64,000 nucleotides of DNA, from contig JANXCW010000006.1 of the NCBI GenBank assembly GCA_025059775.1, positions 22,361 through 86,360 on the forward strand, read 5' to 3'. Numbering within the stretch: the stretch's first letter is position 1; each line of letters begins with the position of its first letter. The position numbers were made by a program, and so were the translations under genes. Below are positions 4,316 to 64,000 of the stretch, piece by piece. The notes under the pieces are model-generated. The model ran no database searches. It worked only from the letters and a program-made list of their open reading frames with translations, and was not told the DNA's origin. This stretch comes from Armatimonadota bacterium. Lineage in GTDB: Bacteria > Sysuimicrobiota > Sysuimicrobiia > Sysuimicrobiales > Sysuimicrobiaceae.

Positions 4316-5674
<1,359 letters not shown>

Positions 5675-5704
5675 GGGCCGGTGGACGGGGAAGGAGGCGG
5701 GGAC

Positions 5705-6703
5705 ATGGAGCGGGTCGAGGAACGGGTGGCTCTGGAGCGGATGCTGGACTGGTACCGCCGGATGGTGTTCGTACGGCGGTTCGAGGAGCAGACGGAACGC
5801 AGCTTCCGGCGGGGGAGGATCGGTGGCTACCTTCATGTGTACATCGGTCAGGAGGCGGTGGCCACGGGGTTTCTGGACGCCATCCGGGAGGACGACATCT
5901 TCTTCGCCAGCTACCGAGACCACGCCCATGCCCTCCTGCGGGGAACGGACCCCCGGGCCGTGATGGCGGAGCTCTACGGCAAGGTCACGGGGGTGGCGAA
6001 GGGGAAGGGCGGCTCCATGCATCTCGTGGACGTCCCGCGGGGCTTCTACGGCGGCTACGGGATCGTAGGAGGCCACCTGCCGCTTGCGGTGGGCGCCGCC
6101 TATGCCCTCCGCTACCAGGGGACGGACCGGGTCTGCCTGTGCTTTTTCGGGGATGGGGCCATGAACTCCGGCGCCTTCCATGAGGCCGCGAACCTAGCGG
6201 GACTGTGGGGCAAGGAAGGGATGTGTCCCGTGGTCTTCGTGGTCGAGAACAACCAGTACGGCATGGGCACCTCCGTGGATCGAGCCTCCGCGGTGCCGGA
6301 CCTCGCCCGGCGTTTCGACGCCTACGCCATCCCCAACGAACGGTGCGACGGCATGGACGTGGTGGTGGTGTACGAGGTGGCCCGACGGGTGGTGGAGGAG
6401 GTACGGCGCACCGGACGCCCGTACGCGGTGGAGGCTGTGACCTACCGGTTCAGCGGTCACGGGGCCGCGGATCTTTTCCAGAGCTACCGCACCAAGGAGG
6501 AGGTGGAGCGCTGGCGGCAGCGGGATCCCCTCCTCCTGCTGGAGCGACGGCTGCGGGAACGCGGCGCCCTGGACGACGCCATGAAGGCGGAGATCTACGC
6601 GTGGGCGGAGGAGCTGGTGGAGGACGCCGTGGCCTTTGCGGAGCAAAGCCCGGAACCTCCGCCGGAGGAGTTGTACACCGACGTGTACGGAGCGGACCCG
6701 TGA
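5705..6703 (+). CDS. pdhA: 2-oxoacid (pyruvate/acetoin) dehydrogenase E1 component alpha subunit, TPP-binding
   Basis: E1-alpha-like sequence (YRDHAHALLRGTDPRAVMAELYGK, GDGAMNSGAFHEAANLA). AAGGAGG RBS before the ATG at 5705. Confidence 0.85.
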   Translation: MERVEERVALERMLDWYRRMVFVRRFEEQTERSFRRGRIGGYLHVYIGQEAVATGFLDAIREDDIFFASYRDHAHALLRGTDPRAVMAELYGKVTGVAKGKGGSMHLVDVPRGFYGGYGIVGGHLPLAVGAAYALRYQGTDRVCLCFFGDGAMNSGAFHEAANLAGLWGKEGMCPVVFVVENNQYGMGTSVDRASAVPDLARRFDAYAIPNERCDGMDVVVVYEVARRVVEEVRRTGRPYAVEAVTYRFSGHGAADLFQSYRTKEEVERWRQRDPLLLLERRLRERGALDDAMKAEIYAWAEELVEDAVAFAEQSPEPPPEELYTDVYGADP

Positions 6704-10478: not shown

Positions 10479-11354
10479 ATGACCGCCGTGGGCGTGTACG
10501 GGACTGCGATCCTCCTCGTGGCCATCTGGCTGCTGTGGAGCTCCGTAAAGATCGTGCGGGAGTACCAGCGGCTGGTGGTGTTCCGGCTGGGCCGGAGCAT
10601 CGGCCGCCGGGGCCCGGGAGTGGTGTTCCTCATTCCCTTCGTGGACCGGGCTATGTGGGTGGATCTCCGGGAGGCATTCCTGGAGATCCCCTCCCAGACC
10701 TGCATCACCAAGGACAACGCGCCCATTAACATCGACTTCCTCATCTACTGGAAGGTGGTGGATCCGGAATCCTCCGTGATCCAGGTACAGGACTTCGCGG
10801 GTGCCGCCCGAGGCATCGCCACCACCACCCTGCGGGCCGTGATCGGGGACATCCTCCTGGACGATGTGCTGGCCCGGCGGGAGCAGATTAACCAGGTGCT
10901 GCGGGCCAAGCTGGATGAGGTAACCGAGCGGTGGGGGGTGAAGGTGACCGCGGTGGAGATCCGGGAGATCCTCCCGCCCCGGGAGGTCCAGGAGGCCATG
11001 ACCCGCCAGATGAGCGCGGAGCGGAACCGCCGGGCCGTGGTTACGGAGGCGGACGGCAAGCGGGAGGCGGCCATCAAGGTGGCGGAGGGCGAAAAGCAGG
11101 CGGCCATCCTGCGGGCGGAGGGCGATCGGCAGGCAGCTATCCTGCGGGCGGAGGGATTCGCGCTCGCGTTGGACAAGATCTTCAGTGTGGCTCGCAACGT
11201 GGATGCCAACACCATGGCCCTCCAGTACCTGGAGACCCTAAAGGCCCTGGGCGCTAGTCCCGCTACCAAGTTCGTCTTTCCGCTGGAGTTCACGCGTCTG
11301 GTGGCGCCCTTTGCAGACCTAGCTCGAGGATCTGACGCTAGCCGGCAGGGATGA
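10479..11354 (+). CDS. SPFH/band-7 (stomatin/prohibitin-like) membrane protein
   Basis: N-terminal TM helix followed by a band-7 domain (VVFRLGRSIGRRGPGVVFLIPFVDR...) and an EA-repeat coiled coil. Confidence 0.85.
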   Translation: MTAVGVYGTAILLVAIWLLWSSVKIVREYQRLVVFRLGRSIGRRGPGVVFLIPFVDRAMWVDLREAFLEIPSQTCITKDNAPINIDFLIYWKVVDPESSVIQVQDFAGAARGIATTTLRAVIGDILLDDVLARREQINQVLRAKLDEVTERWGVKVTAVEIREILPPREVQEAMTRQMSAERNRRAVVTEADGKREAAIKVAEGEKQAAILRAEGDRQAAILRAEGFALALDKIFSVARNVDANTMALQYLETLKALGASPATKFVFPLEFTRLVAPFADLARGSDASRQG

Positions 11355-11434
11355 TCCAGATCGAGGCGGAACCAGCGACTTCCCCAACTCCGTAGCGTAG
11401 GTCAGGAGACGTGTCCAGTCGGAGGTGATTGGAG

Positions 11435-11683
11435 ATGTTGTGTCCAGTCTGCCAAGTGGAGCTACGGATCGCGGAGCGCAGCGGCATTGAGATCGACTAC
11501 TGCCCCAAGTGTCGGGGCGTGTGGTTAGACCGAGGTGAACTCGACAAGATCATCGAACGATCTCTGGGGACGTCTGAAATCTCCAGATACGGGGAAGGTC
11601 CGTATCCGGAACGATACTCGGAGATACACAAGCATCGGAGGAAGCGTAAGTCATTCCTGAGCGAGTTGTTTGACTTCGACTGA
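11435..11683 (+). CDS. Zinc-ribbon domain protein (CPxC...CPKCRGVWLD type)
   Basis: MLCPVCQVEL...DYCPKCRGVWLDRGELDKI motif. GGAGGTGA RBS. Local GC is about 53%, below the window average. Confidence 0.6.
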   Translation: MLCPVCQVELRIAERSGIEIDYCPKCRGVWLDRGELDKIIERSLGTSEISRYGEGPYPERYSEIHKHRRKRKSFLSELFDFD

Positions 11684-11684
11684 T

Positions 11685-12791
11685 CTACACGATGGCTTGG
11701 TGGTTGATTGGGTCAAACAGGTGGAGCCGGCTCATGTCGAGAGCCACGGTCACCTCATCTCCCATTCGTGCGGAGCTGTTCGCATCTACCCGGGCCACCA
11801 GGGAATGCCCGCCCGCCTCCAGGTAGAGGATCACGTCTGAGCCCAGGGGCTCATGCACCTCCACCTTTGCCCGCAGAGCTGCGAAGTGCGGCGGCAGGGC
11901 TCCGTTGCGCAGTGCCGCGTCCTCGATGTGCTCCGGCCGGATCCCCAAAATGACCTCCTTTCCGCCCCACGGCTCCACGTAGGGGGTGAGGGTCTGTGGG
12001 ATCGGTACCCGCCAGCTGCCCGCGTCAAAGACGAAGACCGAATCCTGGCGGGCCAACCGGCCCGGGATGAAGTTCATGGAGGGGCTCCCGATGAATCCCG
12101 CCACGAACATGTTTGCGGGCTTTTGGTACAGGTTCAGCGGGGTGTCCACCTGCTGCACCACCCCTTCCCGCAGCACCACGATCCGGTCCCCCATGGTCAT
12201 GGCCTCCACCTGGTCGTGGGTCACATAGACCGTGGTGGTCTGCAGCCGCGCATGGAGCTTCTTCAGCTCCGCCCGGGTCTGCACCCGCAGGGCCGCATCG
12301 AGGTTGCTGAGGGGTTCGTCCATTAAGAACACCTGAGGCTCCCGCACGATGGCCCTCCCCAGGGCCACCCGCTGCCGCTGCCCGCCCGACAGCTGCTTGG
12401 GCTTGCGGTCCAGGAGGTGCTCGATCCCCAGCATGTGGGCAGCTTCCCGCACCCGCCGGTCGATCTCCCGCGGCGGGTAGCGGCGCAGCCGCAGGCTAAA
12501 CGCCATGTTCTCGTACACGGTCATGTGGGGGTAGAGGGCGTAGTTCTGGAAGACCATAGCGATGTCCCGGTCCTTGGGTGGAACGTCGTTCACCCGGCGG
12601 TCGCCGATGTAGATGTCGCCCTCCGTGGGGTCCTCCAGCCCCGCGATGAGCCGCAGGGCCGTGGTCTTCCCGCACCCGCTGGGCCCCACCAGCACCGTGA
12701 ACTGCCGGTCCGGAATCTCCAGGGTGACGTGACTCAGGGCCACCACGTTTCCGAATCGTTTCGTCACCCGATCGAGGAACACCCGTGCCAT
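11685..12791 (-). CDS. Sugar ABC transporter ATP-binding protein (MalK/MsmX/UgpC family), orphan ATPase
   Basis: Walker A GPSGCGKTT, signature LSGGQRQRVALGRA, Walker B VFLMDEPLSNLD, and a C-terminal TOBE domain. No permease genes are adjacent. Confidence 0.9.
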   Translation of the reverse strand: MARVFLDRVTKRFGNVVALSHVTLEIPDRQFTVLVGPSGCGKTTALRLIAGLEDPTEGDIYIGDRRVNDVPPKDRDIAMVFQNYALYPHMTVYENMAFSLRLRRYPPREIDRRVREAAHMLGIEHLLDRKPKQLSGGQRQRVALGRAIVREPQVFLMDEPLSNLDAALRVQTRAELKKLHARLQTTTVYVTHDQVEAMTMGDRIVVLREGVVQQVDTPLNLYQKPANMFVAGFIGSPSMNFIPGRLARQDSVFVFDAGSWRVPIPQTLTPYVEPWGGKEVILGIRPEHIEDAALRNGALPPHFAALRAKVEVHEPLGSDVILYLEAGGHSLVARVDANSSARMGDEVTVALDMSRLHLFDPINHQAIV

Positions 12792-30600: not shown

Positions 30601-32061
30601 TCAACGCCTCTTCTTCGCACGGGCTCGTTCGTACAGCTCCATGTACCGGCGCGCGGACCGGCTCCACGAGAAGTCCGCCCGCATCCCGGCCTGCACCAGT
30701 GTACGCCAGAGGGCGGGATTCCGGAACGCGTCCAGGGCCCGGCGGATGGCCTCCCACAGGGCATCCGGGGTGTACGCCTCGAACACGAACCCGTTGGCCT
30801 CCCCGCGGGCGATGGCCTCCGGGGTGGCGTCTATGATGCTGTCCGCCAGTCCCCCCGTGCGCCGGACCACGGGCACGGTCCCGTACCGGAGACTGTAGAG
30901 CTGGTTGAGGCCGGAGGGTTCGTACCGGGAAGGCATGAGGAACAGGTCACAGCCTGCCTCGATGCGGTGCGCGAGCCCTTCGTCGAACCCAATACGGACC
31001 CCCACGTTCCGTGGGTACCGTTGGGCCGCATCCGTGAAAGCAGCTTCGTACCTCGGATCCCCCATACCCAGCAGCACGAACTGCACGCCCGCGGCCACCA
31101 TCCGCTCCAGGCACTCCTGGACTAGGTCAAGCCCTTTTTGGTCCACCAGGCGCGTGACCATGCCCAGTAGCGGCACCTCGGGCTCATCCGGGAGCCCGAA
31201 CTCCGCCTGCAGGGCCCGCTTGCAGATGCGTTTCCCCGAGAGGTCCTCGAGCCCGTACCGGGCGGGGATGTAGGGGTCCATGCGGGGGTCCCAGACCGAG
31301 TAGTCCACCCCGTTCAGGACCCCGTAGAGGTCCTGGCTACGGGTGCGCAGCACCCCATCGAGTCCATACCCGAACTCCGGGGTCTGGATCTCCCGGGCAT
31401 AGGTCTCGCTCACGGTGCTGAGGAGATCCGCGGAGAGCAGCGCTCCCTTCATGAGGTTCAGAGAGCCGTAGAACTCCAGACGGGACCAGTACACCTCCTC
31501 GGGTAGGCCGGTCACGGGGAACTGCTCCCGGGGGAAGATTCCCTGATAGGCCAGATTGTGGATGGTGAAGAGGGTAGCCGTACCGCCGAGGACGGAGGCC
31601 CCACGTTCCACGGTGTCCAGGTAAATGGGGACCATGGCTGTGTGCCAGTCGTGGCAGTGAAAGACGTCCGGAACCCACCCTGCCAACCGGACCCAGGCGA
31701 GGGCCGCCCGGCACAGGAAGGTGAACCGATGCAGGTTGTCCCCGTAGTCCTGTCCCCTCTCCCCGTAGATCCCGGGCCGTCCGTAGTAGCCCAGGTGGTC
31801 CAGGAACCACACCGGGACCTTCCCGGCAAGGCTCCCCTCCCATATCCCGGCGAGCTCCCCCCGGCCCTCCACGGGTGCCGAGACCTCACCCACGCGCTTG
31901 AGTCCATGGCGTCCGGGGTCCACCGCAGCATACCGGGGCATCAGGACGCGCACGTCCACCCCCAGGTCACGGAGGGCAGGGGGAAGGGCTCCTGCCACAT
32001 CCGCAAGTCCCCCGGTCTTCGCGAAGGGAACCATTTCAGCCACCACGAAGAGTACCCGCAC
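30601..32061 (-). CDS. glgA: Glycogen synthase (ADP-glucose type, GT5)
   Basis: RVLFVVAEMVPFAKTGGLADV N-terminal motif and a GT-B C-domain. GTG start with GGAGGAGG RBS. Confidence 0.85.
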   Translation of the reverse strand: MRVLFVVAEMVPFAKTGGLADVAGALPPALRDLGVDVRVLMPRYAAVDPGRHGLKRVGEVSAPVEGRGELAGIWEGSLAGKVPVWFLDHLGYYGRPGIYGERGQDYGDNLHRFTFLCRAALAWVRLAGWVPDVFHCHDWHTAMVPIYLDTVERGASVLGGTATLFTIHNLAYQGIFPREQFPVTGLPEEVYWSRLEFYGSLNLMKGALLSADLLSTVSETYAREIQTPEFGYGLDGVLRTRSQDLYGVLNGVDYSVWDPRMDPYIPARYGLEDLSGKRICKRALQAEFGLPDEPEVPLLGMVTRLVDQKGLDLVQECLERMVAAGVQFVLLGMGDPRYEAAFTDAAQRYPRNVGVRIGFDEGLAHRIEAGCDLFLMPSRYEPSGLNQLYSLRYGTVPVVRRTGGLADSIIDATPEAIARGEANGFVFEAYTPDALWEAIRRALDAFRNPALWRTLVQAGMRADFSWSRSARRYMELYERARAKKRR

Positions 32062-32175
32062 AAACCTCCTCCCAGCTGGCCGGGCACTGCCTGGGATAAT
32101 GCCACGGAGCAGACCCCGGGGCAACCCCAGGAAGGGAGGGGGTTTGGCCTGTGGGGGACCACGAGAGATCGAGAT

Positions 32176-32200
32176 TTTTCGCGATTGGACGCGAAATTCC
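32176..32200. promoter_or_regulatory. 7-bp perfect palindrome TTTCGCG-n6-CGCGAAA (candidate operator) in the glgA / HD-GYP divergent intergenic region
   Basis: Seen directly. A second palindrome CCGGAAA-n5-TTTCCGG lies at about 32328-32346. A TTGACA hexamer lies at 32222. Confidence 0.25.
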
Positions 32201-32482
32201 GGGTTTCCTGGCATTTTTCGCTTGACAGAAGGCTCTGGATAGTACAAATTCCCCTTAGAAGGCCGGCGAGGGAAGCGACGGCCAACTTTCAGGTCCTGCC
32301 TGGAAAACGGAATACCTTCCCTATTGACCGGAAAGGGTGTTTCCGGTCCAGGCGGATTTCTAAATTGTCGAAATCAACCTTTTACTCTCCCGCCGGCAGT
32401 ATAGAGCAAATTTCGTGCCAGACTAAATAGGTTCCATGGAAACTTGAATACGAACTTCTCGAACGAAGGAGGGGGGGATGTG

Positions 32483-32500
32483 ATGAATAAGTGGGGGTAA
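32483..32500 (+). CDS. Mini-ORF MNKWG* (5 codons) preceded by GGAGGGGGGG; possible leader/upstream ORF
   Basis: Strong SD-like run. It shares its first 5 codons with the downstream 32-codon ORF. The DNA motif AAGTGGGGGTAA recurs at 32665. Confidence 0.15.
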   Translation: MNKWG

Positions 32501-32577
32501 AGTTCGGATAATCTGAATGTATGGTGTCTAACTCCTGGAAATTATACTAATAAAACGAATGAAAGGAGGGCAAGGAG

Positions 32578-32676
32578 ATGAACAAGTGGGGAGTGTACGT
32601 GGTGCGGCTGGCGCTGGCCCTGACGACCCTGGCGAGCCTGCTGGTGGCCGGTGGGGCTGCTGGCAAGTGGGGGTAA
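32578..32676 (+). CDS. 32-aa hydrophobic small protein MNKWGVYVVRLALALTTLASLLVAGGAAGKWG
   Basis: AGGAGGGCAAGGAG RBS 4 nt upstream. One predicted TM helix. High-GC codons inside a low-GC intergenic island. Begins MNKWG and ends GKWG. Confidence 0.3.
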   Translation: MNKWGVYVVRLALALTTLASLLVAGGAAGKWG

Positions 32677-32833
32677 TTTGACCTGGATGTAGGTGAGCCT
32701 CATTTGATCATGTTGGTAGGGTGAAGTTGGATCCTTCCCCTGCCGTTTAATTGTTCCCTAAAAAGACAAAATAATGGCCCCAAAATTGCTTACCCAGGGT
32801 CCTACTGGAAATCGCTCTCCTAACAGGTGGACG

Positions 32834-34222
32834 ATGAAGAGATCGTTGCAGTTCTTTGTGGGCCTCTGCATTCTAGGGGGCGCTGCAGTTTTGGGCCAAG
32901 TAATCTACGTGTTCTCCCAAACCAGCAGTCCTTACCACCAAACAGATGTCGCAGCTCTCATGCTTCTGACGTTCTTAGGTATCCTAAGTGAACTTAAGCC
33001 AGTCCAATATTATTTTGGCCCTGAGAACAAAACTGAAGTAACCCTTGGGCTTGCCGTTTTTCTGCCTACTTTAATGTTGTACGGATGGACGTTTGCAGTT
33101 CTTGTCGCAATGCTCACTTCCATCTCTACTGATCTTTATGAAGGTAAACCTTGGTATAAAACTTTGTTCAATGCCGGAAACCATGCTATAGCTACGTGGC
33201 TGGCAGGCCACGTATTCGAGGCTATTGCTGGCGGACATGCCTTACCACAGGTTCTGGCTTTGCGGCTTCTTGGCGGTGTCATCGCTGGAATTACATTTTT
33301 CGTTGTGAACATTGGCCTCCTCAGTATTGTAATTTCATTAGCCGCTTCTATTTCTCTTCGAGACACTCTTCTACTTAATGCACAGCTCATAACACCTGTC
33401 TTTGTTTCAATGGTCGGGCTTGCAGTTGTTGGATCAGTGATATGGACAATTCACCCTCTGCTTGTTGTCCTCCTCGCCCCCGCCGCCATGATGACCAAGC
33501 TCTCCTACGCCAACTATGTCCAGCTCCGCATCGAGACCGACAACTTCCTTCACGCCCTCGCGGAGGCGGTGGACGCCCGGGATCCCTACACGGCCCAGCA
33601 CTCCCATCGGGTGGCGGAACTCTGCCGGGCCATCGCCCGCCGCCTGCAGCTCCCGGACCGTGAGGTGAACCGTCTCTACGCTATCGCCCGGGTGCACGAC
33701 GTAGGCAAGATCGCGGTCCGGGACGCCATCCTCCTCAAGCCCGCTCCCCTCAGCGCCGAGGAGCTCAAGGAGATGCGGGGGCACGTGGAGGCGGGTGCCC
33801 GCATCCTGGGTCACATCAGCCTGTACCGGGATGCCCTCGACATCCTCCTCCAGCACCACGAGCGGCTGGATGGGTCCGGGTATCCGAAGGGACTACAGGG
33901 GGAGGAGATCGGCTTATCTGCCCGCATCCTCGCGGTGGCCGATGCCTACGATGCCATGACCACCCTACGCCCCTACCGGCCCGCCAAAAGCCCGGAGGAG
34001 GCTGTACGGGAGTTGTACCGGTTGGCCGGTAAACAGTATGATCTCTCCGTGGTGCGGGCCCTGGAGGACGAACTTATGGAACGCCGGGTGCTTGAGAAAC
34101 CCGTCCTGGCCGCTACCGAATCGGTTTCTGAGATCCTGGAGGCCGTTGATCCCGATGCTCCTCCTGCTCCCCCTCGCGTTGTCCCTCTGCGTCGGATGGA
34201 TCCGGGGCGGAAGTCTTCGTAA
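32834..34222 (+). CDS. Membrane-anchored HD-GYP phosphodiesterase (multi-TM sensor N-domain + HD-GYP)
   Basis: HD motif (HDVGKIAV) and GYP motif (HHERLDGSGYPKGL). N-terminal half has 6-7 predicted TM helices encoded at about 45% GC. ORF frame opens at 32774; the start at 32834 (MKRSLQFF, AGGTGG upstream) is preferred. Confidence 0.8.
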   Translation: MKRSLQFFVGLCILGGAAVLGQVIYVFSQTSSPYHQTDVAALMLLTFLGILSELKPVQYYFGPENKTEVTLGLAVFLPTLMLYGWTFAVLVAMLTSISTDLYEGKPWYKTLFNAGNHAIATWLAGHVFEAIAGGHALPQVLALRLLGGVIAGITFFVVNIGLLSIVISLAASISLRDTLLLNAQLITPVFVSMVGLAVVGSVIWTIHPLLVVLLAPAAMMTKLSYANYVQLRIETDNFLHALAEAVDARDPYTAQHSHRVAELCRAIARRLQLPDREVNRLYAIARVHDVGKIAVRDAILLKPAPLSAEELKEMRGHVEAGARILGHISLYRDALDILLQHHERLDGSGYPKGLQGEEIGLSARILAVADAYDAMTTLRPYRPAKSPEEAVRELYRLAGKQYDLSVVRALEDELMERRVLEKPVLAATESVSEILEAVDPDAPPAPPRVVPLRRMDPGRKSS

Positions 34223-35108
34223 CCTAGCGGAATCCGAGCTCCGCCTGCCCTGGATGGCCCTCCTCGCCATCCTCACGCAACTCCTGATCTTCGACCCTAC
34301 CTCGCGCCTCGTGCCGGTGCGGTTCCCCGTTGTTCCCGTACACGCCCTGTCCTACCTCCTGCTGGCGGTCTTTATCGGGGCGAACCGACGGCTTCCGGGG
34401 ATGTGGCTGCTAGCCGCGGGATTCCTGGCCAACGCCTTGGTGATCCTCAGCAACGGCGGGTACATGCCCGCCTCGGAGGAGGCCCTGCGGGCTGCGGGCC
34501 GGTGGACGCTCCTGCAGGAGGCAGGAGGAACCTACAACAACTCCTCCCTCATCGGGCCGCAGACCCGGCTGTGGTTTCTGGCGGACGTCTTCGCCATCCC
34601 TGCTGGACTTCCGTTTGCGAACGTTTTCAGCCTGGGGGATGTGCTGTTAGCCCTAGGGGTCCTCGTCCTTGTCCCGGGTCTGATGAGAGCCCGACCCCTG
34701 CGGCCGGAGGCGCGGGTAGCTGCAGCCGTGGCAGGAGGCTTTCTTGTGGGGTACCTTGCGGGTAACCTGGAAGCCCCCGCCGCCCTCTCAGCGGTGAGCG
34801 CACCTCAGCCTTCTTCCACCCCCCGCCTCGTCCAGAAATCTTCTCCACCCCCTCTCTCCCCTATGGCTGAACCGGCCACCCCTGCTCCTCAAGTGCTTTA
34901 CACCGTCCAGGTGGGCGCTTACCGGCATTCCGCAAACGCGCGGACGATGGTGAAGCGGCTCGCGGAGGACGGCTACAGGGCCCGCATCCTCTCCGGTAGC
35001 CTCCACCGGGTGGTGGTAGGGAAATTCGAGACTGAGCGGCAGGCGCACCGCCTCGCGGATCTCCTCGGCCGATCCGGTTATCCCACCTACGTGCGCCGCC
35101 TGCGCTAA
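34155..35108 (+). CDS. DUF5317-like membrane protein with C-terminal SPOR (peptidoglycan-binding) domain
   Basis: C-terminal SPOR fold (YTVQVGAYRHSANARTMVKRLAEDGYRARI...YVRRL). N-terminal multi-TM region. Start uncertain (34155 overlaps the HD-GYP end; alternative 34254). Confidence 0.6.
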   Translation: MLLLLPLALSLCVGWIRGGSLRNLAESELRLPWMALLAILTQLLIFDPTSRLVPVRFPVVPVHALSYLLLAVFIGANRRLPGMWLLAAGFLANALVILSNGGYMPASEEALRAAGRWTLLQEAGGTYNNSSLIGPQTRLWFLADVFAIPAGLPFANVFSLGDVLLALGVLVLVPGLMRARPLRPEARVAAAVAGGFLVGYLAGNLEAPAALSAVSAPQPSSTPRLVQKSSPPPLSPMAEPATPAPQVLYTVQVGAYRHSANARTMVKRLAEDGYRARILSGSLHRVVVGKFETERQAHRLADLLGRSGYPTYVRRLR

Positions 35109-39754: not shown

Positions 39755-39829
39755 GCGGGTGTAGCTCAGGGGTAGAGCGTCGGCCCCCCAAGCCGAAGGC
39801 CGCGGGTTCGAATCCCGTCGCCCGCTCCA
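39755..39829 (+). tRNA. tRNA-Gly (anticodon CCC)
   Basis: Hand-folded cloverleaf. Acceptor GCGGGTG/CGCCCGC, D-arm GCTC-AGGGGTA-GAGC, anticodon stem TCGGC/GCCGA with loop CCCCCAA, T-arm GCGGG-TTCGAAT-CCCGT, discriminator T, encoded CCA. TGcTACAAT extended -10 lies 12 nt upstream. Confidence 0.8.
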
Positions 39830-41052: not shown

Positions 41053-41748
41053 CTAGTCGTCCTGCTCCAGGTTCTTCTCCAGCTTGCGCTTCACCCGCTG
41101 GAGGGCGTTGTCGATGGACTTCACATGCCGCCGCAGTTCCGCGGCCATCTCCTGATAGGACTTGCCCTCCAGGTACGCGGTGAGGACCTGATGCTCCAGC
41201 TCGCTGAGGTTACGCCGGATCCTGTCCCGCATCCGGGCGGAGGTCTCCCGATTGATGACCAGCTCCTCAGGGTCCGCCACCTTCATGCCGCTGATCACGT
41301 CGAGGAGCGTGCGATCCGAGTCCTCGTCGTAGATGGGCTTGTTGAGGGAGATGTAGGAGTTGAGCGGGATGTGCTTCTGGCGGGTTGCGGTTTTGATGGC
41401 GGTGATGATCTGGCGGGTGATGCACAGTTCCGCAAAAGCCCGGAAAGAGCTGAGCTTGTCGCGCCGAAAATCCCGGATGGCCTTGTAAAGCCCAATCATC
41501 CCTTCCTGGATGATATCTTCCCGGTCAGCCCCTACCAGGAAGTAGGCCTTGGCCTTCACGCGGACGAAGTTCCGGTACTTGTTGATCAGGTATTCTGAAG
41601 CCCGATCATCCCCCCGTTTCGCCGCCTCCACCAGATCCTCATCGAGCATCTCCGTATAGCAGGATGAAGTGGCTTCCTTTCGGGCAACCGCCACACGCGC
41701 CTCCACGGATTCGGACTGCTCGAGCGATTGGCTTCGGGCCGCTGTCAT
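41053..41748 (-). CDS. sigH: RNA polymerase sigma factor SigH (sigma-70 family)
   Basis: Near-identical stretches to B. subtilis SigH (YLINKYRNFVRVKAKAYFLVGADREDIIQEGMIGLYKAIRDF...AFAELCITRQIITAIKTATRQKHIPLNSY; HVKSIDNALQRVKRKLEK). Confidence 0.9.
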   Translation of the reverse strand: MTAARSQSLEQSESVEARVAVARKEATSSCYTEMLDEDLVEAAKRGDDRASEYLINKYRNFVRVKAKAYFLVGADREDIIQEGMIGLYKAIRDFRRDKLSSFRAFAELCITRQIITAIKTATRQKHIPLNSYISLNKPIYDEDSDRTLLDVISGMKVADPEELVINRETSARMRDRIRRNLSELEHQVLTAYLEGKSYQEMAAELRRHVKSIDNALQRVKRKLEKNLEQDD

Positions 41749-62557: not shown

Positions 62558-63568
62558 TCATTGGCCCAGGATCCATACCCGGACCCGACGTCGGCCCCAT
62601 CGTAGGGCCTCCCGTACGGAGTTGAAGCACACGTCGATGCGCAGCCCCCGGATGGCTCCCCCGGTGTCCGCGGCGATGGCGGTTCCGTACCCCTCCACGT
62701 ACACCACGGTTCCCAGCGGGATCACCCGGGGATCCACCGCGATCACCCCGTGGCGGGCCCGCAGGCCCGTGGCGGTCACCGCATCCACCCCCCGATCCCC
62801 GTACGGCGCGTAGGCACTCGCGGTGACCACCAGGGAAGGTCGACGGATCAGTTCTCCCCGGGAAGGGATGTACCCACGTCCGATGCGTACCACCTGCGGT
62901 TGCGGCGGGAGGATCACCCGGTGCCCAACCTTCTCCCTGCGCACCACTTGCCCGTCCACTCGGATTATCCGGTAGCGTCGCTCGACCACGCCCGGCCGGC
63001 CGGGTTGGATCACCTCCGCTCCCCGGGCGAACAGCGCCCGCACCACCCGGTACGTCACGGGAAAGGGAACGGTCTCGCGCACCACCTCGGTTTCCTCTCG
63101 CACCCGCTGCACCCGGATCTCGCTCCCGCTCTCCAGGGGAGCGTCCAGAGGGGGAGAAACCCGATCTAAGGACTGGAGACGGATCCCCACAGCCTCCAGG
63201 ACCTCTCGGGGGGTCCGGGCAAGGGTACGCAGGGAATGGATCCTCCCATCCACCCGGATCCGCACGGGAATCGCCCGCACCACCGTCACCCGGATCCCGG
63301 GCGCAAGAGGCGTGGCAAGCGGCGGGAAGACCGCGTCTTCCGGACGGAGGGAGATCTGCCGCTCCAGCAGGAGGTCTGCCACGGTCCGGGAGCGGGTGAG
63401 CACCGCTTCCACGCGACCGTCCACCTCCAGCTCCACCACTACCCCCTCCTCTGCGGCTCCCCGGAGACCCGCCACCAGGACCAGTCCAGCCACCATCACC
63501 TGCACAATCCCACGGTGCCCACACAGGCGCATCGGTTCCCTCCCTCGCTGTCCGGTATGTGGAACCAC
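62558..63568 (-). CDS. YabE-like protein (DUF348/G5 + C-terminal 3D domain)
   Basis: C-terminal 3D domain (VVTASAYAPYGDRGVDAVTATGLRARHGVIAVDPRVIPLGTVVYVEGYGTAIAADTGGAIRG). Sits at the Bacillus yabE position upstream of ksgA. Confidence 0.75.
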   Translation of the reverse strand: MVPHTGQRGREPMRLCGHRGIVQVMVAGLVLVAGLRGAAEEGVVVELEVDGRVEAVLTRSRTVADLLLERQISLRPEDAVFPPLATPLAPGIRVTVVRAIPVRIRVDGRIHSLRTLARTPREVLEAVGIRLQSLDRVSPPLDAPLESGSEIRVQRVREETEVVRETVPFPVTYRVVRALFARGAEVIQPGRPGVVERRYRIIRVDGQVVRREKVGHRVILPPQPQVVRIGRGYIPSRGELIRRPSLVVTASAYAPYGDRGVDAVTATGLRARHGVIAVDPRVIPLGTVVYVEGYGTAIAADTGGAIRGLRIDVCFNSVREALRWGRRRVRVWILGQ

Positions 63569-63687
63569 AGCCCCGACGGAAGGAAGGACGAATCGACCTG
63601 AATATTTACCTGTGCAACTGGAATGATCTTAGAGCATAAATTTTCATCAATTCAACTCGGCTTCAAAAGGGGGGTAGGGCAGGGAAT

Positions 63688-64000
63688 TCAGAATTCCGGT
63701 GCGGAGGGAGGCCTGCGAAGGGGCGTGCCGATGAAGAGACCCTCACCTCCGAGGGTTTCCTGGAGACGTCCCTCCAGGAGGATCTGGACCGCGTCCACTC
63801 CGCGCATCCGGGTTGCCGTATAGACGATTTGGTAGACCCGGGCCAGCATGCTGGCGCTTCCCCCTCCCCGCTCAAACTCCCGGCTCAGGTTGACGTATGC
63901 GACCCCGCGCTCAACCCGCACGCCGAGGAGTCGGGTTCCGGAGGGGATTTCGGAGCTGTAGCCCATCCCCTGCTCCTCCGGGTTGGGGCCTTCCAGGAGG
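63688..64000 (-). CDS. GerMN-domain-like protein, 3' portion (gene continues beyond window end)
   Basis: GerMN-like C-terminal sequence (VAYVNLSREFERGGGSASMLARVYQIVYTATRM...VQILLEG). Frame is open past 64000. Confidence 0.45.
   Translation of the reverse strand, partial: LLEGPNPEEQGMGYSSEIPSGTRLLGVRVERGVAYVNLSREFERGGGSASMLARVYQIVYTATRMRGVDAVQILLEGRLQETLGGEGLFIGTPLRRPPSAPEF

Follow-up and report, generated by a model that had tools for sequence, protein, structure and literature searches.

The locus and its MASE9–HD-GYP gene

The window, the whole stretch of 64 kb that was analysed, carries at positions 32774..34222 of the plus strand a gene for a protein of 482 aa with an intact frame. It lies divergent from glgA, which starts at 32061 on the minus strand, and the synteny of the locus is conserved. 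The low-GC part of the coding sequence (32834..33470, plus strand) corresponds to a MASE9 membrane sensor module; the Pfam family MASE9 (PF20972) was matched over aa 85-239 with 29.1 bits against a curated cut-off of 24.3, and the same family assignment was available precomputed for many homologs. The HD-GYP catalytic domain follows at aa 262-426 (33557..34051, plus strand) with a normal GC content. It matched Pfam HD_5 with 129 bits and resembles the solved HD-GYP domains. The HD dyad in HDVGK (aa 308-312) and the HHExxDGxGYP motif in HHERLDGSGYP (aa 361-371) are intact, and the residues H308, D309, H337, H362, G369, Y370 and P371 were invariant in 52 homologs. The solved structure with the best sequence match is a cGAMP-specific enzyme (5z7c); c-di-GMP is the presumed substrate of the predicted phosphodiesterase. 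Judged by domains and motifs, this is a MASE9–HD-GYP c-di-GMP phosphodiesterase of the ordinary type, from an uncultured member of the Armatimonadota. The same architecture and motifs are present in TM1467 of Thermotoga maritima and HdgA of Streptomyces venezuelae, but the published description consulted for proteins of this type mentions no allelic hypervariability of MASE9, compositional step or small-ORF leader. The initial annotation had proposed a chimeric sensor-phosphodiesterase. The architecture is not a novel chimera: the combination of MASE9 and HD-GYP is standard, and all modules exchanged at this locus (see below) are homologous MASE9 alleles of the same clade.

MASE9 has been described as an integral membrane domain with about eight transmembrane segments, two of them short. 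The predicted helix count agrees with this description: the AF2 model places helices at residues 23-49, 56-74, 93-103, 105-122, 127-152, 158-191, 195-226 and 228-269, besides a beta-hairpin at 77-89. The six-helix core of the predicted sensor could be superimposed on solved S-components of ECF transporters, and the model predicts for the sensor the fold of these small-molecule-binding proteins. The last transmembrane helix of MASE9 would continue as a long cytoplasmic linker helix and join the sensor to the HD-GYP domain. The first ATG at 32774 has no Shine-Dalgarno sequence, as had been noted, whereas AGGTGG precedes an internal ATG at 32834. An in-frame motif (M/V)A(R)xLL(P) about 20 codons ahead of the first transmembrane helix is kept in all alleles, and because of this conservation 32774 is nevertheless favoured as the probable start. 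Gene callers cut the gene short at the GC step; for the closest relative, only 291 of about 480 residues are annotated in the NCBI record.

The leader region

The divergent regulatory region between glgA and the small ORFs (32062..32482) has a GC content of 0.54 and contains blocks conserved in seven orthologous loci. A putative sigma-54-type -24/-12 element facing glgA, TGGCACGAAATTTGCT (32405..32420, minus strand), fits TGGCAC-N5-TTGC with the exact spacing. It is the sole TGGCAYR-N4-TTGCW match in the window and was found at the same place in 12 of 12 orthologous loci. A GAFTGA motif was not found in the six-frame translation of the window. On the plus strand, TTGACA at 32222-32227 and an A/T-rich -10 region form, by consensus match only, a sigma-70-like promoter candidate (32222..32250). 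The sequence GCTTGACA is conserved in the seven aligned loci. The other orthologs have it as well, 240-330 nt ahead of the first mini-ORF, although in L012 it is less clear.

Two small ORFs precede the gene on the plus strand. The first, uORF1 (32483..32500), consists of the five codons MNKWG and a stop, is preceded by a strong Shine-Dalgarno sequence and is present in all orthologs. Its start is GTG in four orthologs, its glycine codon varies at the wobble position, and different stop codons are used, while a stop is never lost; the motif occurs twice in the window versus an expectation of zero. The second, uORF2 (32578..32676), codes for a predicted single-helix membrane peptide of 32 aa, MNKWGVYVVRLALALTTLASLLVAGGAAGKWG, with a normal GC content of 0.68. 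It was called as a 32-aa gene in six loci. Differences among its orthologs are synonymous or conservative and include an AGC/TCG serine switch. An exhaustive search of 1.84 billion representative proteins yielded a single matching cluster for the peptide. Downstream follows a hairpin, GGTAGGGTGAAG-TTGGATC-CTTCCCCTGCC (32715..32744, plus strand), with a T-rich tract behind it, an arrangement similar to that of a terminator or attenuator. The RNA fold of 32690-32775 had a free energy of -22.3 kcal/mol (z = -2.5), and the stem is preserved among ten alleles, with compensatory changes at six of its seven predicted pairs. Rfam returned nothing for the leader at E<=1 except a chance miRNA match; above the Rfam gathering threshold, the sole match in the window was the tRNA at 39755-39826. 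A T-loop-like hairpin 3' of uORF2 was considered as a tRNA remnant or att site and rejected, as ARAGORN found no tRNA in 31000-35000.

Every orthologous locus, down to a protein identity of 51 %, had the leader, the two small ORFs and the gene in full length, and a presence/absence polymorphism of the stretch was not observed among them. This conservation, together with that of the synteny, is incompatible with the suggestion of a recent insertion that brought its own promoter and small ORFs.

Base composition

The interval 32062-33480 has a GC content of 0.497, compared to a mean of 0.684 for the other 1419-bp segments of the window (sd 0.016, minimum 0.625), corresponding to z of about -12. 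Sliding segments of 200 bp agreed: GC was 0.42-0.55 from about 32100 to 33500 and again 0.68-0.70 at 33500-33700, and elsewhere in the window none of the 1-kb bins was below 0.62. Thus the low-GC stretch described initially is real, and it has the atypical base composition expected of a horizontally acquired island. The original estimate of about 45 % GC holds for the MASE9-coding part (GC 0.46, GC3 0.38-0.44), not for the whole interval, which has a mean of 0.50 and is not uniform, e.g., the GC content of uORF2 in its middle is 0.68. The stretch is a composite of a conserved regulatory leader and the MASE9-coding half of the gene rather than a single foreign block.

The GC step lies at about 33455-33490 within the single intact ORF, so that a compositional breakpoint inside the HD-GYP gene without a break in frame was confirmed. 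GC3 was 0.38 in the 168 codons 5' of the junction versus 0.86 in the 168 codons 3' of it; in segments of 30 codons, values of 0.27-0.53 were obtained up to codon 211 or so and 0.83-0.93 from codon 226 onwards. Four-fold degenerate sites of the N-terminal half had the composition A.22, C.27, G.13 and T.38, compared to approximately A.08, C.39, G.45 and T.09 in the other genes of the window. The neighbouring membrane-protein genes, DUF5317 and VKOR-like, code for proteins of the same hydrophobicity, yet have a GC3 of 0.81-0.82. Amino-acid composition, considered from the start as a possible refutation, is therefore ruled out as the cause of the dip, since the effect resides at synonymous sites. 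Expression level cannot explain the difference either, because both halves of the gene are on one transcript and one strand.

A hypervariable cassette

Comparison of closely related genomes, all of them metagenome-assembled, revealed that the low-GC coding segment is a discrete cassette of about 850 bp, extending from the last codons of uORF2 to the MASE9/HD-GYP junction (32650..33470, plus strand) and comprising the uORF2 tail, the hairpin spacer, the N-terminal extension and MASE9. Its borders were taken from four strain pairs and mapped onto the window by alignments with a precision of about 20 nt. In these pairs (L005/L015, L003/L074, L009/L075 and L076/L078, the latter with both alleles from one sample) the flanks are 99-100 % identical over 2-7 kb, the cassettes 40-78 %. 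The borders were identical across all four, and the right one is the domain junction. On the right, the cassette ends at the GC step at about 33470, hence the compositional breakpoint is a recombination breakpoint as well. A fifth swap with wider borders was observed between L010 and L011, where L010 carries an L009-like cassette within an L011-like genome. The in-frame fusion of a sensor module, as claimed initially, is upheld insofar as the module is exchanged against a constant HD-GYP part.

Single alleles were recovered independently in separate sources: L015 and L073 carry the same one, and the allele of L005 was present in four samples. The JGI metagenome 3300059601 contains two alleles. 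Among 29 database pairs with HD-GYP parts at least 95 % identical, the median identity of the MASE9 parts was 55 %; the database was clustered at 90 % identity, so that similar pairs are missing from it and the alleles look more divergent than they are. Groups of homologs with HD-GYP halves at least 97 % identical contained two to five measurable MASE9 alleles each. The last eight or so codons of uORF2 fall within the cassette, the remaining peptide is conserved. The tails differ by one or two residues at the C-terminus; the residue at position -5 was G/A, M/T and F/H in three of the four strain pairs, and the fourth lacked upstream sequence. Taken together, the cassette comprises many old, very divergent and functional alleles within each species-level lineage of the clade. 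It moves between otherwise identical genomes by homologous recombination, which is anchored on the left in the conserved gene of the 32-aa peptide and on the right in conserved HD-GYP sequence.

Metagenome contigs often end at the cassette borders (L013, L017, L073 and L074). With contigs broken there and gene callers truncating at the GC step, such loci are therefore systematically under-annotated.

The MASE9 part had a dN/dS of 0.05-0.2, not above that of the HD-GYP part, which indicates purifying selection. Relaxed constraint or a pseudogene state is ruled out by these values and by the integrity of all frames. Both dS and dN were two to four times higher in MASE9 than in the HD-GYP part, and synonymous sites were nearly saturated; at such divergence the Nei-Gojobori estimates and the parsimony polarisation used below are rough. 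In 15 of 16 alleles the cassette had a lower GC3 than the rest of the gene, 0.44-0.80 versus 0.77-0.93, and the change occurred at the border of the cassette. The L009 allele has a GC3 of 0.90, and alleles of one species differ by up to 0.2. At four-fold sites of the coding strand all alleles were G-poor and pyrimidine-rich. Polarised substitution counts within the allele group of the window showed no excess of AT-to-GC changes and no drift toward high GC; in the window's own lineage the loss of GC is ongoing.

Flanking direct repeats and second or silent copies of the cassette, which would point to gene conversion or shufflon-type variation, were not found in the window. A diversity-generating retroelement is ruled out by the lack of an adenine-specific spectrum and by differences that include indels and span 850 bp.

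Origin of the low GC content

We consider it rather probable that the low GC content results from the long life of the multi-allelic sensor cassette, in which a weak GC-raising force would allow decay toward an AT-biased mutational equilibrium. The alleles would be kept by some balancing or diversifying selection that acts on the recognition specificity of the sensor. The remaining genome would be held at a GC3 of 0.8-0.9 by GC-biased gene conversion, by weak selection dependent on recombination and a large effective population size, or by both. In the cassette this force would be weak because different alleles should be unable to form a heteroduplex and each allele class makes up only a fraction of the population. 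Its composition would then fall toward the equilibrium. For the low GC of the non-coding part of the stretch, its nature as a conserved regulatory leader would be sufficient explanation. A positive correlation of bacterial GC content with recombination has been reported (PMC4450053), and a segment that presumably does not recombine between its alleles and is GC-poorer than its freely recombining surroundings, as the cassette is, conforms to this relation. In the present case, however, the contrast lies between two halves of one gene on one transcript, and a weakness of gene conversion or of selection is the presumed cause of the low GC. In a rough calculation with an assumed AT mutation bias of 2, a GC3 of 0.88 would require B, the scaled force in favour of GC, to be about 2.7; division of B by two to six allele classes would lower GC3 to 0.66-0.44, the observed range. 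The GC3 of 0.90 in L009 and the spread within species are not predicted by such a simple equilibrium model. Nor does symmetric AT-biased mutation alone predict G-poor, pyrimidine-rich four-fold sites, which hint at an additional strand-specific mutational or mRNA-level factor.

An ancient horizontal acquisition, in which the ancestor of the clade took up a homologous low-GC sensor module, perhaps with the leader, and the composition of the donor was kept, appears unlikely to us. It would account for the atypical composition with its sharp in-frame border, the next-closest MASE9–HD-GYP homologs (33-39 % identity) are located on contigs with GC 0.31-0.38, and the L009-like cassette of L010 demonstrates that import between lineages occurs here. 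But the low GC3 is graded (0.44-0.80) over many independent old alleles in several species, and the MASE9 identity to the GC-rich L009 allele (56 %) is within the general trend of N- versus C-terminal divergence. Recent branches of the window's allele group, moreover, show no amelioration, as described above, and the GC content of uORF2, in the midst of the stretch, is host-like. A scan of metagenomes with two MASE9 motifs placed close relatives only on the contigs of the clade itself, with GC 0.64-0.68. In a set of genome contigs that includes neither the genome of the window nor its close relatives, only two HD-GYP loci matched, both distant. A protein search with the N-terminal 220 aa retrieved only P0008, via its last 46 residues, despite existing full-length relatives. 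This poor yield was probably due to word or bias filtering of hydrophobic sequence and is uninformative on donors. In these searches neither a low-GC donor nor plasmid, phage or viral carriers of the module were found, and the locus, with metabolic neighbours, has no mobility genes, tRNA or flanking repeats. A foreign origin, one of the possibilities raised at first, is not borne out by these results.

Less probable still is a selection that acts on the sensor half as DNA or mRNA, for rare or AT-ending codons that would slow translation during membrane insertion, for a U-rich and G-poor mRNA, or for an AT-rich tract to which a silencing or regulatory protein binds. Such selection would be in line with an excess of C over G at four-fold sites in all alleles, including the GC-rich one of L009 (C.54 versus G.35), and with T at least equal to A in the low-GC alleles. 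Against it, the alleles of L009 and L010 work at a GC3 of 0.8-0.9, the GC3 of different alleles is 0.2-0.45 apart, GC3 is normal in two other multi-TM genes of the window, and the border is the recombination border, not the end of the last transmembrane helix as such.

A local hypermutation, through targeted mutagenesis or transcription-associated damage, would have created divergence and AT richness in place. The two- to fourfold rise of dS and dN and the strand-asymmetric composition of synonymous sites could be read in this way. We regard it as very unlikely, however, given that pairs with zero substitutions in kilobases of flanks have a saturated cassette divergence and indels, that identical alleles were obtained from independent samples, and that neither an adenine-specific, DGR-like spectrum in the differences nor a repeat or template copy in the window was detected. 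An assembly that joined two organisms at about 33475, a concern from the outset to which contig breaks at the cassette borders might lend colour, is excluded for all practical purposes because the same in-frame junction and synteny recur in more than ten independent assemblies (NCBI, JGI, ENA and Logan; at least eight lineages, with the GC step), and L003 is collinear with the window at 84 % identity over 12 kb, straight across the junction.

Comparison with known polymorphic loci

The comQXP locus of Bacillus and the comCD locus of streptococci are polymorphic quorum-sensing receptor loci. In staphylococci, several discrete alleles of agrBDC, the specificity groups, coexist within species, with a hypervariable transmembrane sensor of the receptor and a conserved cytoplasmic part, as at the locus described here (PMC10482373). 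The output of the agr and com loci is a histidine kinase, here it is an HD-GYP phosphodiesterase. A signal-peptide gene that co-varies with the receptor lies inside their hypervariable block. The adjacent peptide in our case is conserved except for one or two residues of its C-terminal tail, the part encoded within the cassette, and a peptide processing or export gene of the agr/com type was not found in the locus. Approximately four fixed groups are known for agr, in contrast to at least five alleles per lineage here.

Clusters in replacement flexible genomic islands are low in GC. These islands, e.g., for O-antigen, flagellar glycosylation or the S-layer, present very different versions at the same position between conserved borders and are exchanged by homologous recombination in the flanks (PMC4033161). 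The cassette likewise combines one locus, divergent versions and exchange via conserved flanks. However, replacement islands are multi-gene clusters with different gene sets for an exposed surface polymer, while the cassette, about 0.85 kb in size and inside one gene, consists of homologous alleles of a predicted inner-membrane sensor. An S-component fold linked to a cytoplasmic signalling domain has been described for 5TMR-LYT kinases such as BtsS and YpdA (PMC11109136); in our case, the fold is that of a predicted model. MASE9 or HD-GYP proteins are not among the receptors listed in that study (PMC11109136).

Biological significance

As a further and rather improbable reading, the cassettes may represent specificity groups, each S-component-like MASE9 allele recognising a different membrane-soluble or periplasmic ligand. 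Candidate ligands would be the variable tail at the C-terminus of the 32-aa peptide and a strain-specific small molecule. The conservation of the peptide outside its tail makes a pure pherotype model less likely. If specificity groups do exist, conspecific strains would have their c-di-GMP pools switched off by different cues, a polymorphism resembling pherotypes or public-good receptors with a second-messenger output, in a phylum almost without experimental biology. Polymorphic sensors with multiple alleles are known among peptide-pheromone kinases, and we came across no such report on c-di-GMP enzymes; here the polymorphism implies a strong and lasting selection on what the intramembrane sensor recognises. 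With respect to base composition, and with the decay of a long-lived cassette as the favoured explanation, the locus would be a natural experiment within one gene on the dependence of bacterial GC richness on recombination. One reading frame holds expression, strand and transcript constant, with a recombining half at a GC3 of 0.8-0.9 and a locked half at about 0.4-0.7. Why GC-rich bacteria stay GC-rich under AT-biased mutation would be testable here.

Base composition and architecture of the HD-GYP gene

The interval 32062-33480 had a GC content of 0.497, against a mean of 0.684 (sd 0.016) in all other windows of this length (z ~ -12). All 1-kb bins of the 64-kb window except two lay between 0.62 and 0.72. 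At a resolution of 200 bp, the GC content was 0.42-0.55 from ~32100 to ~33500 and reached 0.68-0.70 by 33500-33700. The recovery falls within one intact ORF of 482 aa (32774..34222, plus strand), with a GC3 of 0.38 in the 168 codons 5' of the junction versus 0.86 in the 168 codons 3' of it, confirming the sharp drop and the return in mid-ORF with the frame intact that the initial annotation had described. The interval is not uniform: a 32-aa ORF inside it (32578-32676) has a GC content of 0.68. Hydrophobic amino acids as cause of the dip were ruled out by the four-fold degenerate sites of the N-terminal half (A.22, C.27, G.13, T.38; other genes of the window about A.08, C.39, G.45, T.09) and by two multi-TM genes nearby, which are equally hydrophobic and have a GC3 of 0.81-0.82. 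Mild dips to 0.55-0.58 in 300-bp windows were seen at 11350-11700, 41250-41700 and 63400-63900. The first two, located at the ends of long ORFs and in the former case a gap of ~330 bp, look like ordinary intergenic regions.

The combination of MASE9 and HD-GYP is a described, standard architecture, e.g., TM1467 and HdgA (bioRxiv 10.1101/2021.11.05.467447), thus the protein is not a novel chimera but an ordinary MASE9-HD-GYP protein. Its homologs are named Armatimonadota MAG proteins. An (M/V)A(R)xLL(P) motif, in frame and ~20 codons before the first TM helix, was kept in every allele; therefore the first ATG (32774) is probably the true start.

Conservation of the locus

The nearest orthologous locus, L003 (GCA_031432595.1), shares 84 % nucleotide identity with the window over 12 kb and is collinear straight through the island. 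Orthologous loci from NCBI, JGI, ENA and Logan assemblies have a common gene order down to 51 % protein identity: the aminotransferase, VKOR, galT-like and glgA genes lie on one strand and are followed by the HD-GYP gene, a DUF5317-SPOR gene and a glycerate-kinase-like gene. All of the close clade (L003, L004, L005, L013, L015, L017 and L074) showed the drop in GC content between the start of glgA and mid-ORF. This excludes a chimeric assembly junction and, together with the leader and synteny shared by the orthologs, a recent insertion carrying its own promoter and small ORFs, as had been considered. In the public annotation of L003 (5819-6694), the gene is reduced to its C-terminal 291 aa. 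The low-GC MASE9 half, though intact and in frame, was overlooked, its unusual composition being the presumed reason.

Cassette exchange between strains

The GC step marks where a multi-allelic cassette ends; strains exchange this cassette by homologous recombination, for which the conserved flanks serve as anchors. Four strain pairs (L005/L015, L003/L074, L009/L075 and L076/L078, the latter two contigs from one sample) were 99-100 % identical in the flanks for 2-7 kb and only 40-78 % identical over ~850 bp. The borders were alike in all four pairs, with the last ~8 codons of the 32-aa ORF on the left and the MASE9/HD-GYP junction (LL.P.A.MTKLSY) on the right. Mapped to the window, the cassette spans ~32650-33470, its right border being the GC step. 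A fifth swap with wider borders, L010/L011, placed an L009-like cassette within an L011-like genome. The L009-like tract substituted in L010 (600-2000) includes the 32-aa ORF and the MASE9 part and extends through about half of the HD-GYP domain; outside this tract L010 is 96-99 % identical to L011. Independent sources also yielded identical alleles (L015 equals L073; the L005 allele occurred in four samples). Among 29 database homolog pairs with HD-GYP parts at least 95 % identical, the MASE9 identity had a median of 55 % (range 45-90), in a database clustered at 90 % identity and thereby depleted of similar pairs. Homolog groups with HD-GYP parts at least 97 % identical held 2-5 measurable MASE9 allele classes. 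The metagenome contigs L013 (start), L017 (end), L073 and L074 (both start) break off close to a cassette border, at a distance of about 20-190 nt, as is expected from assembly-graph breaks where alleles coexist in one sample; L013 and L017 stem from one assembly and carry different alleles.

The proposal of a foreign or diverged module fused in frame held insofar as a module is exchanged in frame, but what is exchanged are homologous alleles from within one clade; the reading as a foreign island did not hold. A scan of metagenomes keyed on two MASE9 motifs revealed close relatives only on contigs of this clade with a GC content of 0.64-0.68. Plasmid, phage or viral homologs were not found, nor was an adenine-specific spectrum in the differences between alleles, and silent cassette copies or flanking repeats were absent within the window. 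According to Nei-Gojobori estimates, MASE9 exceeded the HD-GYP half 2-4-fold in both dS and dN (dS 1.49 versus 0.45 between the window and L003), without a higher dN/dS (0.05-0.2 in MASE9, 0.1-0.25 in the HD-GYP half). Synonymous sites were saturated between alleles of one species. With the low dN/dS, the alleles therefore are functional and old, not decaying.

Composition of the alleles and a possible cause

The GC3 deficit of the cassette is general and graded, with the step at the cassette border. Cassette and rest of the gene had a GC3 of.44 and.79 in the window's own allele,.45 and.78 in L074,.48 and.83 in L015,.50 and.78 in L003,.56 and.83 in L005,.60 and.84 in L012,.66 and.85 in L013,.67 and.84 in L004, ~.68 and.93 in L076,.70 and.88 in L075,.71 and.77 in L011, ~.73 and.93 in L078, and.80 and.86 in L010. 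Among these alleles the deficit was absent only in L009 (.90 and.87). Changes polarised by parsimony, a biased method, presented no AT-to-GC excess in the window's allele group and a GC-to-AT excess in its own lineage (23-30 versus 10-12), hence giving no apparent sign of amelioration. Four-fold sites were strand-asymmetric in the window (32834-33493) and in all orthologous cassettes: G was depleted (0.13-0.25 in most alleles, 0.35 in L009 and L010, which are GC-rich) compared with C (0.27-0.54), and in the low-GC alleles T equalled or exceeded A. Four-fold T was also raised in the HD-GYP half of the window's gene, at 0.17 versus about 0.09 in other genes.

Transcript, strand and expression level are common to both gene halves and thus not the cause of the contrast. 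We infer that balancing or diversifying selection acts on the sensor and preserves its alleles. A GC-raising force, GC-biased gene conversion (PMC4450053) and/or weak selection, would be weak in the cassette because divergent alleles would be unable to pair and each class would form only a fraction of the population; GC3 would then relax toward an AT-biased mutational equilibrium. In a rough calculation with an assumed AT bias of 2, a GC3 of 0.88 requires a scaled force of ~2.7, and division by 2-6 allele classes would yield 0.66-0.44, the observed range, which makes a weakened GC force plausible. This explanation leaves unaccounted the G-poor, pyrimidine-rich synonymous sites of all alleles, the GC3 spread among alleles of one species and the GC-rich L009 allele.

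Regulatory leader and small ORFs

Judged by its sequence, the non-coding part of the island is a conserved regulatory leader. A candidate sigma-70-like TTGACA matches the consensus at 32222 (plus strand). A perfect sigma-54 -24/-12 element, TGGCACGAAATTTGCT (32405-32420, minus strand), faces glgA, is the sole such match in 64 kb and was kept in all 12 orthologous loci. Transcription of the glgA/galT-like operon may depend on sigma-54 and start with a leader of ~340 nt. A mini-ORF of five codons with a strong SD, MNKWG-stop (32483-32500, plus strand), occurred in every ortholog, in four with a GTG start. The Gly wobble base and the stop codon differ between loci, yet a stop was always retained, which argues for translation rather than just a DNA motif. 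The 32-aa ORF, 95 nt downstream, begins with the same 14 nt and also ends with the same 12 nt (AAGTGGGGGTAA) as this mini-ORF. The mini-ORF looks like a regulatory leader peptide. The most distant ortholog, L012, has three MNKWG-starting mini-ORFs at 5596-5821, spaced 88 and 96 nt, one being MNKWG-stop and two being copies of MNKWGRTKCERWA; it lacks the 32-aa membrane peptide.

The 32-aa ORF (plus strand, GC normal) encodes a single-helix membrane peptide and evolves protein-like, with synonymous changes and a serine codon-family switch. One cluster of relatives, restricted to this clade, was found among 1.84 billion representative proteins. The only hypervariable residue, position -5 from the C-terminus (A, S, G, M, T, F or H), belongs to the part of the ORF that is swapped with the cassette. 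Three of the four strain pairs differ at this residue, and the remaining pair lacks the upstream sequence; this variation weakly hints at a peptide-sensor pairing. Downstream, a terminator-like hairpin (32715-32744, plus strand) retained its stem through compensatory changes. An Rfam search of the leader region gave no family match; the sole match at gathering threshold in the window was a tRNA (39755-39826).

Sensor function

The locus resembles agr/com receptors (PMC10482373) in its polymorphic sensor block, but has an HD-GYP output and no processing gene, and is not a member of these systems. It works like replacement flexible genomic islands (PMC4033161), however with a single domain in place of a gene cluster, and does not belong to them either. 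The AF2 model (pLDDT 86.9) has eight helices, of which the last TM helix continues beyond the membrane and joins the HD-GYP domain as a cytoplasmic linker (228-269). A small ligand likely binds within the membrane domain, and its signal would control c-di-GMP hydrolysis via this continuous helix. Variable stretches, above all the first helix, aa 146-175 and aa 181-222, are interspersed with conserved motifs along MASE9, a pattern that fits alleles differing in what they recognise.
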